From the NCBI RefSeq assembly GCF_003334315.1, contig NZ_QOWR01000012.1: a stretch of DNA of 64,000 nucleotides. One strand, given 5' to 3'. Positions 4,039 through 49,118 of the stretch are shown here, piece by piece. The notes beneath the pieces were generated by a model, which saw only the letters and a list, made by a program, of their open reading frames with translations, made no database searches and was not told the DNA's origin. This stretch comes from Escherichia coli (GTDB taxonomy: Bacteria > Pseudomonadota > Gammaproteobacteria > Enterobacterales > Enterobacteriaceae). Every line of letters begins with the position of its first letter. The stretch's first letter is position 1. A program made the position numbers and the translations under genes.

Positions 4039-4108
4039 CATTCTGACGGAAGATATAGATTGGAAGTATTGCATTCACTAAGATAAGTATGGCAACACTG
4101 GAACAGAC

Positions 4109-5161
4109 ATGAATTATCAGAACGACGATTTACGCATCAAAGAAATCAAAGAGTTACTTCCTCCTGTCGCATTGCTGGAAAAATTCCCCGCTACTGAAAA
4201 TGCCGCGAATACGGTTGCCCATGCCCGAAAAGCGATCCATAAGATCCTGAAAGGTAATGATGATCGCCTGTTGGTTGTGATTGGCCCATGCTCAATTCAT
4301 GATCCTGTCGCGGCAAAAGAGTATGCCACTCGCTTGCTGGCGCTGCGTGAAGAGCTGAAAGATGAGCTGGAAATCGTAATGCGCGTCTATTTTGAAAAGC
4401 CGCGTACCACGGTGGGCTGGAAAGGGCTGATTAACGATCCGCATATGGATAATAGCTTCCAGATCAACGACGGTCTGCGTATAGCCCGTAAATTGCTGCT
4501 TGATATTAACGACAGCGGTCTGCCAGCGGCAGGTGAGTTTCTCGATATGATCACCCCACAATATCTCGCTGACCTGATGAGCTGGGGCGCAATTGGCGCA
4601 CGTACCACCGAATCGCAGGTGCACCGCGAACTGGCATCAGGGCTTTCTTGTCCGGTCGGCTTCAAAAATGGCACCGACGGTACGATTAAAGTGGCTATCG
4701 ATGCCATTAATGCCGCCGGTGCGCCGCACTGCTTCCTGTCCGTAACGAAATGGGGGCATTCGGCGATTGTGAATACCAGCGGTAACGGCGATTGCCATAT
4801 CATTCTGCGCGGCGGTAAAGAGCCTAACTACAGCGCGAAGCACGTTGCTGAAGTGAAAGAAGGGCTGAACAAAGCAGGCCTGCCAGCACAGGTGATGATC
4901 GATTTCAGCCATGCTAACTCGTCCAAACAATTCAAAAAGCAGATGGATGTTTGTGCTGACGTTTGCCAGCAGATTGCCGGTGGCGAAAAGGCCATTATTG
5001 GCGTGATGGTGGAAAGCCATCTGGTGGAAGGCAATCAGAGCCTCGAGAGCGGGGAGCCGCTGGCCTACGGTAAGAGCATCACCGATGCCTGCATCGGCTG
5101 GGAAGATACCGATGCTCTGTTACGTCAACTGGCGAATGCAGTAAAAGCGCGTCGCGGGTAA
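4109..5161 (+). CDS. aroG: DAHP synthase, Phe-sensitive
   Basis: 350-aa ORF recognised as AroG (MNYQNDDLRIKEIKELLPP...). Confidence 0.95.
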   Translation: MNYQNDDLRIKEIKELLPPVALLEKFPATENAANTVAHARKAIHKILKGNDDRLLVVIGPCSIHDPVAAKEYATRLLALREELKDELEIVMRVYFEKPRTTVGWKGLINDPHMDNSFQINDGLRIARKLLLDINDSGLPAAGEFLDMITPQYLADLMSWGAIGARTTESQVHRELASGLSCPVGFKNGTDGTIKVAIDAINAAGAPHCFLSVTKWGHSAIVNTSGNGDCHIILRGGKEPNYSAKHVAEVKEGLNKAGLPAQVMIDFSHANSSKQFKKQMDVCADVCQQIAGGEKAIIGVMVESHLVEGNQSLESGEPLAYGKSITDACIGWEDTDALLRQLANAVKARRG

Positions 5162-5170
5162 GGTTTAATT

Positions 5171-5244
5171 GTCGGATGCGCCGTCAGAGTGGCGTATCCG
5201 ATGAATCACCACAGGCCTGATAAGTCGCGCAGCGTCGCATCAGG
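5171..5244. repeat. REP elements (BIME) downstream of aroG
   Basis: Palindromic units cggatgcgcc...ggcgtatccg and gcctgataag...cgcatcaggc. Confidence 0.7.
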
Positions 5245-5267
5245 CAATGTGCTCCATTGTTAGCAAC

Positions 5268-5305
5268 AAAAAAGCCGACTCACTTGCAGTCGGCTTTCTC
5301 ATTTT
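5268..5305. terminator. Bidirectional terminator between convergent aroG and gpmA
   Basis: Stem aaagccgact/agtcggcttt flanked by A-run and T-run. Confidence 0.75.
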
Positions 5306-5318
5306 AAACGAATGACGT

Positions 5319-6071
5319 TTACTTCGCTTTACCCTGGTTTGCAACCGCCGCTGCTTTCGCTGCGATCTCGTCAGCATTACCCAGATAATAGCGTTTCAGC
5401 GGTTTGAAATTCTCGTCGAACTCATACACCAGCGGCACGCCAGTCGGGATATTAAGCTCAAGAATCTCTTCTTCGCTCATGTTATCAAGATATTTCACCA
5501 GCGCACGTAAAGAGTTACCGTGTGCAGCGATGATCACGCGCTCACCGCTCTTCATACGCGGCAGAATAGTTTCATTCCAGTAAGGGATCACGCGGTCAAT
5601 GGTCAGCGCCAGGCTTTCCGTCAGCGGCAGTTCTTTCTCGCTCAGTTTCGCGTAACGCGGATCGTGACCCGGATAACGCTCATCATCTTTAGTCAGTTCC
5701 GGCGGAGTCACTGCAAAACCACGACGCCACTGTTTCACCTGCTCGTCGCCATACTTTTCAGCAGTTTCCGCTTTGTTCAGACCCTGCAACGCACCGTAGT
5801 GACGTTCGTTCAGTTTCCAGGATTTCTCAACGGGCAGCCATGCCTGATCCAGTTCGTCCAGCACATTCCACAGGGTATGGATAGCGCGTTTCAGCACAGA
5901 AGTGTAAGCAAAGTCAAAGCTGTAACCTTCCTCTTTCAGCAGCTTACCTGCTGCTTTTGCTTCGCTTACGCCTTTCTCAGACAGATCCACGTCGTACCAA
6001 CCGGTGAAACGGTTTTCTTTGTTCCACTGACTTTCGCCATGACGAACCAGAACCAGCTTAGTTACAGCCAT
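5319..6071 (-). CDS. gpmA: 2,3-bisphosphoglycerate-dependent phosphoglycerate mutase
   Basis: ORF trimmed to [17 protein letters not shown] (250 aa) with the RHGE phosphohistidine motif. Confidence 0.93.
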
Positions 6072-40016: not shown

Positions 40017-40973
40017 TCACATCGCCGCTTCATTTTTCGCCCGTAGCTTCTTCGCCTGGCTTTCCAGCAACAGGTAACAGATCAGCGCCAGCAGCAGTGG
40101 GATAAAGTAATACAGCACACGGTAAGCGAGTAGGGCGGCGATAATTGTACCTTTGGAGGTATGCTCCCCAGCCAGTAGTGCGATAAACACCGCTTCCAGC
40201 ACACCGATCCCCGCCGGAATATGCACGATGACGCCAGCAATACTACTAACCAGTAACACGCCCAGTACAAAGAAATAGTTCACGCTTTGACCAAGTAACA
40301 GCCAGATAATCGCCCCCATTACCATCCAGTTAACGCTGGAAATCAGCATCTGAGCGAGGGCGAATTTCCATGAAGGCAGCACCAGCTTTTGCCCTTTGAT
40401 GGTCATATGGCGGTGCTTCGCGAAAGCGCAAAACCACAAATAAACCGCGATAATCATCAGTAAGCCAATGCCGAGAATACGCAGCGTAGTTTGATCGACA
40501 TACCAGTGATCCGGCAACTCCACCACGCCTGCGGTAAAGATAATCCCTGCCAGTAAAATGTAGCCCAGCCAGTTGGTGGTAATACTGAGCGAGAAAATCC
40601 GCGTAATAGTGCTACCGGGCAACCCCAGACGAGAGTACAAACGATAGCGCATACCAATGCCGCCGACCCAGGTACTGAGCGTCAGGTTGAAGGCGTAGCA
40701 GATAAACGACACCAGCATCACCTGGCGCTTCGCCAGTTTGTGACCGCAGTAAAAGCGGGCGAGCAGGTCATAGCAGCCGTAAATCAGATAGCTGACGACC
40801 ACCAGCCCGACCGCACTAAGCAGCGCAACGCGATTGTAGTCGCGGATGACCTTCCAGACCTCTTCCCAGTCCACTTTTTTGGCGTAGACCACCAGCAACA
40901 CAATCACCGCGATAAAAAACAGCCAGGTGAGGATCTTCTTTGCTAAGCGCCAGCGCGGGTGTGATTTACTCAT
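40017..40973 (-). CDS. ybhN: Inner membrane protein, lysylphosphatidylglycerol-synthase TM-domain-like family
   Basis: 318-aa multi-TM ORF; start overlaps the clsB stop. Confidence 0.85.
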   Translation of the reverse strand: MSKSHPRWRLAKKILTWLFFIAVIVLLVVYAKKVDWEEVWKVIRDYNRVALLSAVGLVVVSYLIYGCYDLLARFYCGHKLAKRQVMLVSFICYAFNLTLSTWVGGIGMRYRLYSRLGLPGSTITRIFSLSITTNWLGYILLAGIIFTAGVVELPDHWYVDQTTLRILGIGLLMIIAVYLWFCAFAKHRHMTIKGQKLVLPSWKFALAQMLISSVNWMVMGAIIWLLLGQSVNYFFVLGVLLVSSIAGVIVHIPAGIGVLEAVFIALLAGEHTSKGTIIAALLAYRVLYYFIPLLLALICYLLLESQAKKLRAKNEAAM

Positions 40974-42214
40974 CAGGGTTTTACCCCCGTGTTTTCAGTT
41001 TCTACCCGATCCTGCGTTTCCATTGTCGGTTGTGCGGGCGGATCAACCTGCGCCAGACGTGGCGTGTGTGCCGGAAGCCAGCCAACCAGCGCCGGGAAGT
41101 GGCGTAAAAAGTGGAACGCCAGCACGCTTTTGGTCAGGTTCCACCAGGTGCGTTTGGGCAGCATGGTTTCATCCACCTGCTGACAATCTGCGGCGATAAT
41201 GCCGTTCAGATTATCGCGCAGCGTCTGGTTAAAATTACGATCGTGGATGATGACATTTGCTTCGAGATTCAGTGACAAACTGAGCGGATCGAGATTACTG
41301 GACCCTACTGTCGCCCAGTGATCGTCCATCAATGCTACTTTGCCGTGGAGCGGGCGGCGGCGGTACTCAAACACCTGAACGCCGCCTTTAACCAGATAGT
41401 TATACAGCAAGCGCGCGCCGACTCTGACAATCGGCATATCCGGTTCGCCCTGAATGATCAGTTTGATCCGCACCCCGCGGCGTGCCGCTTTACGCAAGGC
41501 GTGTAAAAATCGATAGCCGGGGAAGAAGTAGGCGTTGGCGATAATGACTTCCCGCCGCGCCTGAGTGAGCATTTTCAGATAGTGGCGTTCTATATCATCG
41601 CGGTGTTCTTCGTTATCGCGCCAGACCAGCAATACCTGCGCTTCTCCCGGCTGGCGATTTTCTTCCGCTTTGTGATGACGTCGCCACCAGCGTCGTGCCG
41701 CGCTCTGTCCAGGCAGGTTTTCCAGCTCAAACTGGAGAATATCTTCGACAATCGGCCCTTCAAGGCGTACCGCGTAATCCTGTTTAGCCTCTGGACCGTA
41801 GCTGGACATATGCTCGGCGGAGTAATTCAGCCCGCCAATAAAGGCGATACGCGCGTCGATCACCACAATTTTGCGATGCATCCGGCGAAACACATTGGTG
41901 CGCATACCAAAAAGGCGAGGGCGGGGATCGTAGTAGCGAAATACCACGCCAGCTGCCGTCAGTTCATTGACAAACTCATCGCTGAGATCCGGCGAACCGT
42001 AGCCATCCAGCAAGACTTCCGCTTTAACCCCGCGTTGCGCTGCTGCCAGTAGTGCCGCATGCAGCTGTTTGCCGACGTCATCCTCAAACCAGATAAACGT
42101 TTCAAGAATGATGCGTTCTTGTGCCTCGCCAATCGCCTTAAACACCGCGGGATAATATTGCTCGCCGTTTTCCAGCAACTCGATCTTATTGCCTTCACGC
42201 CAGCTACATTTCAT
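40973..42214 (-). CDS. clsB: Cardiolipin synthase B (phospholipase D family)
   Basis: 413-aa ORF with two HKD motifs ([16 protein letters not shown]). Confidence 0.92.
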
Positions 42215-42972
42215 AAATGAATCTCCGCACTTAAAGGGGCATGATCAGAAAGGTGTCGCCATGTCTGCAGCGGCAACGCGGTTGGCGCGCTGGCGCTGGC
42301 ATTTTTGACGTAGATCCTGTCCAGACGTAGTAGAGGAAATTGCACCGGAAACGTGCGCGCCGGGCGTCCGTGGGCGCGGGTAAATATCTCATCCAGTCCG
42401 GCCTGCACTTTTAACGGATGATTAGCTTTTTGCCGCCAGTCATTGAAATCACCCGCCACCAATACCGGTTCGCCGTCCGGTAGCTCATTCACCCATTCGG
42501 CGAGCATCGCAAGCTGCGCCTGACGGTGCGCCTCACGCAGGCCCAGATGTACGCACATCACATGAATCGCTTTTCCGGTCATCGGCGGCACAATGCGGCA
42601 GTAGAGCACGCCGCGCTTTTCCGCACCATCGACCGAAACATCGCGATTCTCATAATGTTCAATGGGATAACGCGACAGTACGGCGTTGCCGTGATGCCCT
42701 TCCGGGTATACGGCATTGCGACCGTAGGCAAAATCGCTCCACATGGTGTCGGCGAGAAACTCGTAGTGCGAGGTATCGGGCCAGTTTTCCACATGCAGCG
42801 GATGAACTTCGTGCGCGCCCATCACTTCCTGCAGGCAAACAATATCGGCGCTGACGGTACGCACGGCATCGCGAAGTTCCGGCAAAATGAAGCGTCGGTT
42901 AAACGCGGTAAAGCCTTTGTGAATGTTGATGGTGAGCACCTTGAACGAAAATTGTTGTGTTTGATCGGGCAT
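42211..42972 (-). CDS. ybhP: Endonuclease/exonuclease/phosphatase-family protein
   Basis: 253-aa ORF; stop overlaps the clsB start by 4 nt. Confidence 0.85.
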
Positions 42973-43104
42973 AATTTTCCTGTCTTTGCCTCTTATCTCA
43001 TTGAAATAGTGTAGTCGGCGTCACAAAAAGGTGCGGTCTTACGGAATTTTCCGTAAAGTTCGGTACTCTGAGTAAGTAGAGATAAATTCTTCAGGAGAGA
43101 AGCC

Positions 43105-43515
43105 ATGAAGTGGCAACAACGTGTTCGTGTCGCAACGGGTCTAAGTTGCTGGCAGATTATGTTGCATTTACTGGTAGTGGCGCTGCTGGTGGTGGGCTGG
43201 ATGAGTAAGACTCTGGTTCACGTCGGCGTGGGATTATGCGCACTGTATTGTGTCACGGTAGTGATGATGCTGGTGTTTCAGCGCCACCCCGAGCAACGCT
43301 GGCGTGAGGTGGCAGACGTGCTGGAAGAGCTGACCACGACCTGGTATTTTGGCGCAGCGCTGATTGTGCTGTGGCTGTTGTCCCGCGTTCTGGAAAACAA
43401 CTTTTTGCTGGCAATTGCAGGGCTGGCAATCCTTGCCGGCCCGGCGGTAGTGTCTTTGCTGGCGAAAGATAAGAAGTTACATCACCTTACGTCTAAACAT
43501 CGCGTACGCCGCTGA
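43105..43515 (+). CDS. ybhQ: Inner membrane protein YbhQ
   Basis: 136-aa hydrophobic ORF; 3' end overlaps the convergent ybhR. Confidence 0.82.
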
Positions 43516-44583
43516 CCCTGTCGTGGCCGTTATCACCAGTAGCGGCCACAAACTATTCCACACAATATCCAGACTCGCATCCTTCAAATAAATCTGCTTG
43601 GTAATGTCCGTAAAGTGGCGAATAGGGTTAATCCACGTCAGGTTTTGCAGCCAAACTGGCATGTTTTCCACCGGCGAAACGTAACCGGAAAGGAGAATGG
43701 CGGGCATCATAAAGACAAACACGCCGATAAACGCCTGCTGTTGTGTCGAGCAGAGTGATGAAATCAACAGACCGAATCCCACCAGCGATAAACCGTAAAT
43801 CACCATCGTAAAGTAGAACAGCGCCAGCGATCCGGCGAAGGGGATTTGATACGCCCAGATACCAATCGCCAGCACAATGGTGGCCTGGAAGGTGGCGACA
43901 ATTAACGCCGGTACGGCTTTGCCGATGAAGATCTGCCAGGTGGTGAGCGGCGAAACCAGTAGCTGATCGAGCGTACCTTGTTCACGTTCGCGGGCGACGG
44001 AAAGTGAAGTGACGATCATTACGCCGATAGTGGTGATCATGGCGATCAGCGACGGCACCACAAACCATTTGTAGTCGAGATTCGGGTTATACCAGTTGCG
44101 TACTACCAGCTCGCTGTTGTTAGGTTTCGGTTTTCCTTCCAGCAGCTCCTGCTGATAATTTTTGACGATCTGTTGCAGGTAGTTGGCGGCAATCTGCGCA
44201 CTGTTGGAGTTACGCCCGTCGAGGATCAACTGCAAAGGCGCGGTCTGGAAGGTATCCAGTTTGCGCGAGAAGTCAGCCGGGAAACGCACCAGTAGTAACG
44301 CCTTTTGTGTGTCGATGGTTGGGCGGATCTCCTGTGGGCTTTTCAGCAGCAGCACATGAGTAAAGGCGCTGGCGCGGGCAAAACGTTGGGTCAGCTCCAC
44401 CGAATGCTCGCCGTTATCTTCATCGTAGATGGCGATGGTGGCGTTAGTCACTTCCAGCGTGGCGGCGAACGGGAACAGGATCACCTGAATTAGCACGGGT
44501 AAAATCAGAATCGCGCGGGTTTGTGGTTCGCGCAGCAACGACTGCAACTCTTTGCGGATTAACGTCCATAAGCGATGAAACAT
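43477..44583 (-). CDS. ybhR: ABC-2 type exporter permease
   Basis: 368-aa membrane ORF; last gene of cecR-ybhG-ybhF-ybhS-ybhR. Confidence 0.9.
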
Positions 44584-44593
44584 GCTCTTCTCC

Positions 44594-45719
44594 CTAATCC
44601 AGCCGACGTTTGGTTTTCAGCCACGTCAGGCCGATAAACATCACCGCCGAAGCGATCAAAAACAGCACGTTTACCACCAGCACCACTGGAATATTCCCGG
44701 CGAGGAACAGGCTTTGCAGGGTGCTGACGAAATAACGAGCGGGAATAATGTACGTCACCGCGCGGATCACCGCGGGCATACTGTCGATCTGAAAAATAAA
44801 GCCGGAAAGCATAATCGACGGCAGAAAAGCCGCGTTCAGAGCGACCTGAGCGGCATTGAACTGGTTGCGGGTTATCGTGGAAATCAGCAGCCCCATCCCC
44901 AGGGTACTGAGTAAAAACAGGCTGGAGATAAAAAACAGAATCAGCAGCGACCCGCGATACGGCACGCCGAGAATAAACACTGACACCAGCATACACAGCA
45001 ACATCGCCAGCATCCCGAGAAAGTAATAAGGGATCAGCTTACACAGCAGCAGTTCCGTGCGGGTAATCTCCGTAGAGAGCAGAGCCTCCATGGTGCCGCG
45101 TTCCCATTCTCGCGCCACCACCAGCGAGGTGAGAATCGCGCCGATGACCGTCATGATGATGGTCACCGCACCCGGGATAATAAAGTGCTGGCTTATCGCC
45201 GCCGGGTTAAACCAGTAGCGGGTTTGTACATCAATAAGCGGTTCAAAAGTCTGCCCGTTGTCCTCCGCTCGCTGCATTTGCCAGATCTGCCAGATCCCTT
45301 CGACATACCCCTGCACAAAGTTAGCGGTATTCGGCTCACTGCCGTCGGTGATCACCTGAATCGGTGCGGTGGCGTTGGCGCGCTCCATCTGTTCCGCAAA
45401 ATCCACCGGAATAACCACCAGACCGCGAATTTTCCCCGCCTGCATTTTGGCGATCAGTTCCTGACGGTTATCGCTGATGGTGGCGTCGATGTAGGGCGAA
45501 CCGGTCATGGTGTGGGTGAAATCCAGCGCCGCTTCGCTACGCTGTTCCAGTAAAATCCCGACCCGCAGCTTGCTGGAGTCGAGGTTAATGCCGTAACCAA
45601 AAATAAACAGCAGTAGCAGCGGGATCACTACCGCAATCAGCCAGCTACTCGGATCGCGAACGATCTGCCGCGTCTCTTTAACGCACAGCGCCCGTACGCG
45701 ACGCCAGGACAGGATCGGG

Positions 45720-45727
<8 letters not shown>
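44594..45727 (-). CDS. ybhS: ABC-2 type exporter permease
   Basis: 377-aa membrane ORF. Confidence 0.9.

Positions 45728-49118
<3,391 letters not shown>

Follow-up and report, generated by a model that had tools for sequence, protein, structure and literature searches.

How do two genes that run towards each other bring both their proteins and their transcripts to an end when no DNA is left between them? The question is raised by ybhQ and ybhR in the 64,000-nucleotide stretch of Escherichia coli DNA analysed here (the window). ybhQ (43105..43515, plus strand) encodes an inner-membrane protein of the YbhQ family (Pfam PF11076), 136 aa in length and ending in ...KHRVRR before the stop codon, and ybhR (43477..44583, minus strand) encodes the ABC-2 type permease of the YbhFSR exporter, 368 aa in length and ending in ...FRRKVM before the stop codon; the ORF listing and RefSeq agree on both genes. 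A reading made from the sequence alone had proposed a convergent, tail-to-tail coding overlap of 39 bp at 43477..43515, and this is borne out by the ORF listing, the sequence itself and the RefSeq ends. Identical PGAP/RefSeq ends are found in strain BLR(DE3) (ybhQ 4106-4516, plus, and ybhR 4478-5584, minus, of locus L001). Within the overlap, ybhQ codons 125-137 lie opposite ybhR codons 357-369 in register, position 1 of the codons of ybhQ facing position 3 of those of ybhR. On the ybhQ strand the TAA that stops ybhR appears as a Leu codon (TTA), and the TGA that stops ybhQ is Ser357 (TCA) of ybhR.

An overlap of this kind could be an annotation artefact, the true ybhQ ending earlier or in another frame and sharing no coding sequence with ybhR. 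Gene callers are indeed split on the N-terminus of YbhQ, which is given as 136 or 161 aa, and ybhQ of the Escherichia albertii type strain carries a nonsense codon. Nevertheless, we regard an artefact as extremely unlikely. The check for an in-frame ybhQ stop before 43477 returned none, nor is there one before 43513, so the overlap stands. The frame is backed by full-length homology in 80 species, the position of the ybhQ stop is conserved and is defended by the synonymous-site constraint in ybhR described below, and the C-terminal end of YbhR is conserved up to the final residues in every species, also where the genes do not overlap. Both genes are thus genuine, with conserved homologs (YbhQ with PF11076, YbhR as ABC-2 permease) at the loci of 80 species. 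All YbhQ homologs found in the protein homolog search have PF11076, and among the matches listed they are close Enterobacteriaceae relatives only. In NCBIfam no model matched YbhQ, and the ABC-2 permease matches to YbhR extend to residue 365-366. As for the two YbhQ lengths, several metagenome gene calls (P0002, P0003 and others) give the 161-aa form, with an N-terminal extension of 25 residues relative to the 136-aa protein. The nonsense codon in E. albertii (NBRC 107761; L005:529-939) is an in-frame TAG at ybhQ codon 16 where E. coli has TGG (Trp16), and ybhQ is probably a pseudogene in this strain, in which ybhR is intact.

The mere existence of the overlap is ordinary, since E. coli has 75 convergent pairs among its 663 overlapping adjacent gene pairs (Huvet and Stumpf, 2014, PMC4161906). 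Its length is not surprising either. Stops (TTA, CTA and TCA on the ybhR strand) make up 3.8% of codons in the in-register antisense frame of ybhR, and the probability of 12 antisense codons without a stop is approximately 0.63; an open 12-codon extension of ybhQ is therefore unremarkable by chance. Conservation of the overlap is another matter. Of 5426 complete E. coli genomes, 5424 contain the 701-bp ybhQ-ybhR region, and in 5365 of them the 111-bp junction has an identity of at least 99%. When one genome per species was scanned, 80 loci were obtained, and among the 79 with a full-length ybhR (the window and L001 included) the overlap is exactly 39 bp in 64. These cover at least 15 genera, among them Escherichia, Citrobacter, Salmonella, Leclercia, Kluyvera, Enterobacter, Atlantibacter, Siccibacter, Mangrovibacter, Buttiauxella and Cedecea, and reach down to 63% YbhQ identity. 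In Kosakonia cowanii the overlap is 48 bp, because Ser357 of YbhR is Thr there. Judged from these sequence counts, the conservation of the overlap is far beyond chance.

The overlap is not universal, however. At 13 of the 79 loci the two genes are separated by gaps of 2-206 bp, and YbhQ of these species has another, longer tail (...P.KSFGL...NP..HR followed by the stop). The separated loci are spread over at least five clades of the ybhR tree, and the overlap is therefore dispensable. The 39-bp form occurs in the deepest branches of the same tree (Buttiauxella/Cedecea and Atlantibacter), and the homology of the long YbhQ tails implies recombination or else loss on several occasions. We consider it probable that the junction is an ancient, compact, dual-coding arrangement in which the 3' end signals of each transcript lie in the coding sequence of the partner and antisense pairing of the two RNAs is a tolerated by-product.

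Some of the separated loci have features of their own. In Phytobacter (L030:2869-2948 and L033:2872-2951) ybhQ stops at a TAA 18 nt short of the ybhR stop, and the in-frame antisense reading of the ybhR tail (LHHLTPEHRIGR followed by a stop) together with the TCA/TGA codon persists beyond the ybhQ stop; from its sequence, this junction has the look of a transitional form between overlap and long tail. In Raoultella (L072:2935-3119 and L077:2938-3145) the spacers between ybhQ and ybhR are 183-206 bp in length and contain two copies of a GC-rich palindromic (REP-like) unit of approximately 75 nt, and the other non-overlapping species have single intergenic hairpins without U-tracts.

Selection on the shared sequence was followed by Fitch parsimony counts on a neighbor-joining tree of 60 distinct overlap-type ybhR sequences, which is not a full codon model; in comparisons of overlapping with non-overlapping loci, the latter comprise 13-14 loci in approximately five clades. 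The 192 four-fold sites of ybhR have a median of 12 changes and a 5th percentile of 2.5. In the distal half of the overlap (43495..43515), where K131-H-R-V-R-R136 and the stop of YbhQ lie opposite Ser357-Phe363 of ybhR, wobble changes number zero at Ser357 and Ala358, two each at Ala359 and Ala361, and four at the two-fold Phe363. Codons 357-363 form the lowest-ranked window for synonymous change in the whole gene, with windows of both five and seven codons. Ser357 (TCA) is the sole zero-change codon among the 16 TCN Ser codons of ybhR, and Ala353, Ala358, Ala359 and Ala361 are the four least-changing of its 32 Ala codons (0, 0, 2 and 2 synonymous changes). In the proximal half, on the other hand, the wobble sites of ybhR codons 364-368 vary normally, and the constraint over the six proximal codons is for YbhR only. 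The same division is seen in YbhQ: residues 125-130 rank with the most variable positions of the protein (4-12 changes on the tree), and residues 131-136 have 1-6 changes, mainly V/I or R/H.

The identity of the changes agrees with selection on YbhQ. Tyr360 of ybhR varies freely between TAC and TAT, giving Val or Ile in YbhQ, while Ala wobble changes by which an Arg of YbhQ would become Cys, Gly or Ser are nearly absent and Lys to Glu in the YbhQ tail is rare. Phe363 is TTT (Lys in YbhQ) in 59 of 63 overlap-type loci, whereas it is TTC in 10 of 14 non-overlapping ones. Ser357 is TCA in all 62 overlap-type loci that have Ser, as against nine TCA and four TCG among the non-overlapping loci. In Siccibacter colletis Ser357 of YbhR is replaced by Leu (CTA), and the ybhQ stop is retained at the same site as TAG. 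Wobble sites of ybhR are thus nearly frozen opposite the last six codons and the stop of ybhQ, which indicates selection on a basic YbhQ C-terminus of the form K-H-x-V/I-R-R/H-stop. By the parsimony counts, both reading frames are under selection in the distal seven codons of the overlap, and the YbhQ tail reads as a free linker followed by this conserved basic end. According to the positive-inside rule, the tail would be located in the cytoplasm.

Could such a pattern arise if the YbhQ tail were not under selection? The junction might be a neutral frozen accident, the wobble and hairpin patterns stemming from ybhR codon preference, from features of the ybhR mRNA or from a mutational cold spot, and the RNA 3' end described below being incidental. 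In its favor, GCG, CCG and GCC are codons in common use, the YbhQ tail is free to evolve over its proximal half, and, as noted above, the open antisense run of 12 codons is expected by chance. Codon preference is already accounted for in our comparison, however, as the constrained sites are still extremes among the 192 four-fold sites and the 32 Ala codons, and the changes that are tolerated match selection at the protein level of YbhQ. A neutral origin therefore appears distinctly unlikely, also in the light of the hairpin considered below. In having two real genes on opposite strands that share their 3' coding ends, with an overlap set by the position of the stop and conserved among orthologous pairs, ybhQ-ybhR resembles the bacterial convergent overlapping pairs in general (PMC4161906). 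It differs from them in being held at exactly 39 bp in at least 15 genera and in the constraint that the last six codons and the stop of ybhQ place on synonymous sites of ybhR.

As there is no intergenic DNA, the signals for the 3' ends have to lie inside the coding sequence of the partner. The sequence-only reading had likewise held that neither gene could have a conventional terminator outside the coding sequence of the other, and had proposed mapping of the transcript ends; published data sets supply such a map and agree. In Term-seq of MG1655, the dominant steady-state 3' end of the ybhQ mRNA is at 825080 on the plus strand, reported in two of three growth-condition tabs and classified as 'primary ybhQ, antisense ybhR' (Adams et al., 2021, PMC7815308). 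MG1655 coordinates were carried over to the window with an offset of 781525, set from the printed flanking sequences, from U00096.2 coordinates and from a genome-version shift of 777 bp, which places this end at 43555, within ybhR and 40 nt past the ybhQ stop. Bicyclomycin DirectRNA-seq in the same study, of low resolution (800-nt windows), puts Rho termination regions of both transcripts inside the opposing gene: the region for ybhQ is centred at approximately 43657 (MG1655 825182, plus strand; Rho score 3.9, p 5e-7) and that for ybhR, i.e., the ybhGFSR transcript, at approximately 43404 (MG1655 824929, minus strand; Rho score 3.85, p 2e-7) (PMC7815308).

The DNA on the ybhR side of the junction has a composition that would suit Rho. 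Between 43516 and 43595 the plus strand has 34% C and 14% G (C/G 2.45), and a C-rich, G-poor tract 3' of a stem-loop, at 43550..43602 on the plus strand, is a candidate rut site. Codons -42 to -30 of ybhR (43564-43602) are the second stretch of the gene with few synonymous changes and lie directly 3' of the ybhQ mRNA end; they may represent a Rho-loading site within the coding sequence. The tail that follows the conserved hairpin, AAACTATTCC, contains no U-tract. A consensus scan found no hairpin-plus-U-tract terminator after the stop of either ybhQ or ybhR, and the promoter and terminator scan gave nothing usable past either stop codon. In the sequence, the conserved hairpin is flanked by a T-run on neither side. 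The plus strand has another hairpin at 43433-43447, within ybhQ and before the overlap begins. An intrinsic terminator, uni- or bidirectional, was considered and ruled out, there being no U-tract on the terminated strand. The single hairpin at a convergent junction does recall the bidirectional intrinsic terminators; unlike those, it is flanked by neither an A- nor a U-tract, and termination is Rho-dependent on both strands. On the minus strand it is located upstream of the ybhR stop and therefore cannot terminate ybhR.

This hairpin is a GC-rich stem-loop in the 3' UTR of ybhQ (43523..43549, plus strand) that falls inside ybhR codons 345-354. It starts seven bases beyond the ybhQ stop, and the 3' end at 43555 is 6 nt past its last base. 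The helix has 10-11 bp, with 11 bp and a 5-nt loop in E. coli. The E. coli plus-strand RNA folds at -21.7 kcal/mol (z -3.6, none of 200 shuffles equally good; range for the hairpin -18.5 to -21.7 kcal/mol), while the minus-strand RNA at the same place does not stand out (z -0.25). In an RNAalifold prediction over 62 species and 121 nt this helix is the only one. Its wobble sites in the stem (Leu345, Pro347, Ala/Thr352 and Ala353) have 0-3 changes, against 11-16 at the loop sites (Leu348, Val350 and Ile351), and compensatory changes were found at two stem pairs (six A-U and three U-A cells). Each of the 63 overlap-type loci keeps the helix, with folding energies from -12.2 to -22.2 kcal/mol. 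In K. cowanii, with its 48-bp overlap, it is lost. A search of 42900-43900 against Rfam at a permissive E-value returned no known RNA family.

The covariation in the hairpin is split between the two strands. The core 6 bp favor the plus strand (16 G-U cells and one broken, vs. 16 broken on the minus strand), and the innermost stem pair favors the minus strand (18 G-U cells). Taken overall, pairing reaches 92.6% on the plus strand vs. 93.9% on the minus strand, and the plus strand has the stronger fold in 36 of 63 loci. It is assigned to the plus strand on the basis of the fold asymmetry in E. coli and the Term-seq end. A matching embedded stem-loop for ybhR was also sought and dropped: the minus-strand RNA past the ybhR stop folds no better than shuffles (z -0.34), and ybhQ codons 100-124 show no synonymous constraint.

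For the neutral explanation raised above, it counts that the hairpin is almost as stable on the minus strand in many species and that Raoultella, with its separated genes, has kept it. Against it stand the freely varying wobble sites of the loop between the two arms, the measured RNA end just past the stem, and the fact that in 4 of 13 non-overlapping loci the hairpin is weaker than in any of the 63 overlapping ones. The architecture at the ybhQ 3' end has a known counterpart. Rho-dependent transcripts have been described that carry a stable stem-loop without a U-tract at their steady-state end, with C in excess over G downstream, and that are terminated further on and trimmed back by exonucleases (Dar and Sorek, 2018, PMC6061677). 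ybhQ resembles this class in its stem-loop just upstream of a precise 3' end, in the lack of a U-tract, in the excess of C over G and in the bicyclomycin-sensitive region further on. It differs in that the stem-loop and the presumed rut site are wholly within the coding sequence of a convergent gene, so that the same DNA has to specify YbhR residues 345-354 as well.

Do the two transcripts affect each other? The sequence-only reading had stated that the two mRNAs are necessarily antisense at their 3' ends. For full-length mRNAs this follows from the shared coding sequence, and in vivo it is backed by the published 3' end at 43555, by the two Rho regions, by antisense reads over ybhR and by the listing of ybhQ-ybhR among the 165 convergent excludons of ExcludonFinder, present in at least 50% of RNA-seq samples (PMC12288877). 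In total RNA of the wild type, sense and antisense values are 111 and 5.0 RPM over ybhQ and 14.2 and 24.0 RPM over ybhR (PMC7373196). If the 24 RPM of antisense over ybhR fall within approximately 79 nt, their density equals that of ybhQ sense RNA (111 RPM over 411 nt), and this fits the end at 43555. The wild-type antisense signal over ybhQ (5 RPM) is close to the density of ybhR sense RNA spread over the whole gene.

The same reading had suggested transcriptional interference or RNase III-dependent regulation, and here the data divide. RNase III-type dsRNA captured with p19 at both ybhQ and ybhR exceeds the level at ybhS approximately 10-fold (Huang et al., 2020, PMC7373196), the RPM in four samples being 293/205/281/342 for ybhQ, 322/230/304/354 for ybhR and 27/30/16/20 for ybhS. 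The near-equal values for ybhQ and ybhR suggest that the reads come from the junction, presumably from the overlap itself. Sense RNA of neither gene is raised in RNase III mutants, as judged from single-sample RPM values (PMC7373196): sense and antisense are 99 and 3.5 (ybhQ) and 11.6 and 23.9 (ybhR) in rnc-14, and 64.6 and 6.3 (ybhQ) and 6.2 and 13.8 (ybhR) in rnc-38. dsRNA fragments thus map to both genes, as the suggestion would have it, but the mRNAs do not rise when RNase III is defective, and taken together the data point only faintly to a regulatory effect of the overlap.

A stronger regulatory role would make the pair a functional excludon, in which the transcript of ybhQ, once induced by sigma-E, enters the 3' end of ybhR and lowers expression of the YbhFSR efflux pump by collision of polymerases and/or cutting of the duplex by RNase III, the reverse happens when ybhGFSR is derepressed from CecR, and the overlap is conserved for that purpose. 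A sigma-E-type promoter motif (GGAATTT-N17-TCTGA) is located upstream of ybhQ at 43043..43071 on the plus strand, the sole match in the 64 kb where 0.08 are expected; ybhQ is induced 5-fold by sigma-E (PMC2731931), and in Salmonella a sigma-E ChIP site has been found between ybhP and ybhQ (PMC4577112). The excludon listing, the p19 signal with its near-equal values over the two genes, as expected at a junction, and the persistence of the arrangement across many genera are further points in favor, and a stress-dependent effect of sigma-E-driven ybhQ on ybhR is conceivable. ybhQ-ybhR shares with the convergent excludons (PMC12288877) the running of both transcripts into the neighbor and the captured dsRNA fragments. 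The hallmark of excludons, however, is mutually exclusive expression by interference or RNase III, and for ybhQ-ybhR there is no derepression in the data from the two rnc mutants. In addition, the exact length is explained more simply, as an indel would frameshift two proteins and the YbhQ tail is under selection; in five or more clades the genes have come apart and both are kept; and across the genome p19 captures far less dsRNA from convergent 3' overlaps than from divergent ones (PMC7373196). We thus find a functional excludon rather unlikely, and we infer that the overlap exerts no strong regulation.

If the compact dual-coding junction is accepted instead, events at the locus could be pictured as follows. 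ybhQ has its last 12 codons and its stop on the strand opposite the same number of final codons and the stop of ybhR, each codon facing one of the partner. In the proximal half the C-terminus of YbhR dominates and YbhQ residues follow wobble changes in ybhR, while in the distal half fixed ybhR wobble positions let YbhQ retain its basic, probably cytoplasmic end and the TGA stop. The ybhQ transcript enters ybhR and is released by Rho approximately 100-150 nt downstream, and 3'-5' exonucleases would presumably trim the mRNA back to the stem-loop, leaving it with a stable end 6 nt beyond the stem. The ybhGFSR transcript, which is weakly expressed, is in turn released by Rho within sequence antisense to ybhQ. 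The two RNAs are then complementary over at least 39 nt, and probably over approximately 150 nt or more, and some of the duplex would appear as RNase III-type dsRNA fragments. Pairing of the RNAs is most likely a tolerated consequence of compaction that changes expression modestly at most, and not a dedicated switch. A more elaborate version holds that the whole junction (basic tail, TGA, stem-loop and C-rich tract, all of them written into the 3' coding part of ybhR) is a selected regulatory module by which the sigma-E envelope-stress response, acting via ybhQ transcription, tunes the stability or completion of the ybhGFSR mRNA 3' end. If true, it would explain the exact 39 bp across Enterobacteriaceae, but we consider it quite improbable.

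Much about the locus is already known: E. coli annotations all show the overlap, the excludon catalogue lists the pair, and published genome-wide tables give the 3' ends and the Rho dependence. The significance beyond ybhQ-ybhR is small. What is added here is a worked example of a single stretch of DNA in which three layers of information are combined (the C-termini of two proteins, a stop codon and a stem-loop at the 3' end of an mRNA), and in which the synonymous sites of one gene are visibly constrained by its neighbor. In practical terms, 'synonymous' recoding of the 3' end of ybhR, or deletion of either gene to its annotated ends, would alter the tail or the mRNA 3' end of the partner.

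Two further observations concern the surroundings of the junction. ybhQ is a lone plus-strand gene between the minus-strand operons cecR-ybhGFSR (upstream) and ybhP-clsB-ybhN (downstream), and 40973-47471 (minus strand) thus has the layout of a noncontiguous operon. The three noncontiguous operons reported with ExcludonFinder do not include ybhGFSR ... ybhP-clsB-ybhN (PMC12288877), and the Rho region in the sequence antisense to ybhQ weighs against a noncontiguous operon across this gene. Near its 5' end, ybhQ has an ORF-internal Term-seq 3' end at MG1655 824690, corresponding to 43165 in the window (ybhQ codon 21), with an intrinsic-terminator score of 4.9 and no Rho dependence (PMC7815308). 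The first approximately 23 codons of ybhQ show very few synonymous changes, and the 3' end at 43165 may belong to a 5' attenuator or to a small stable RNA.
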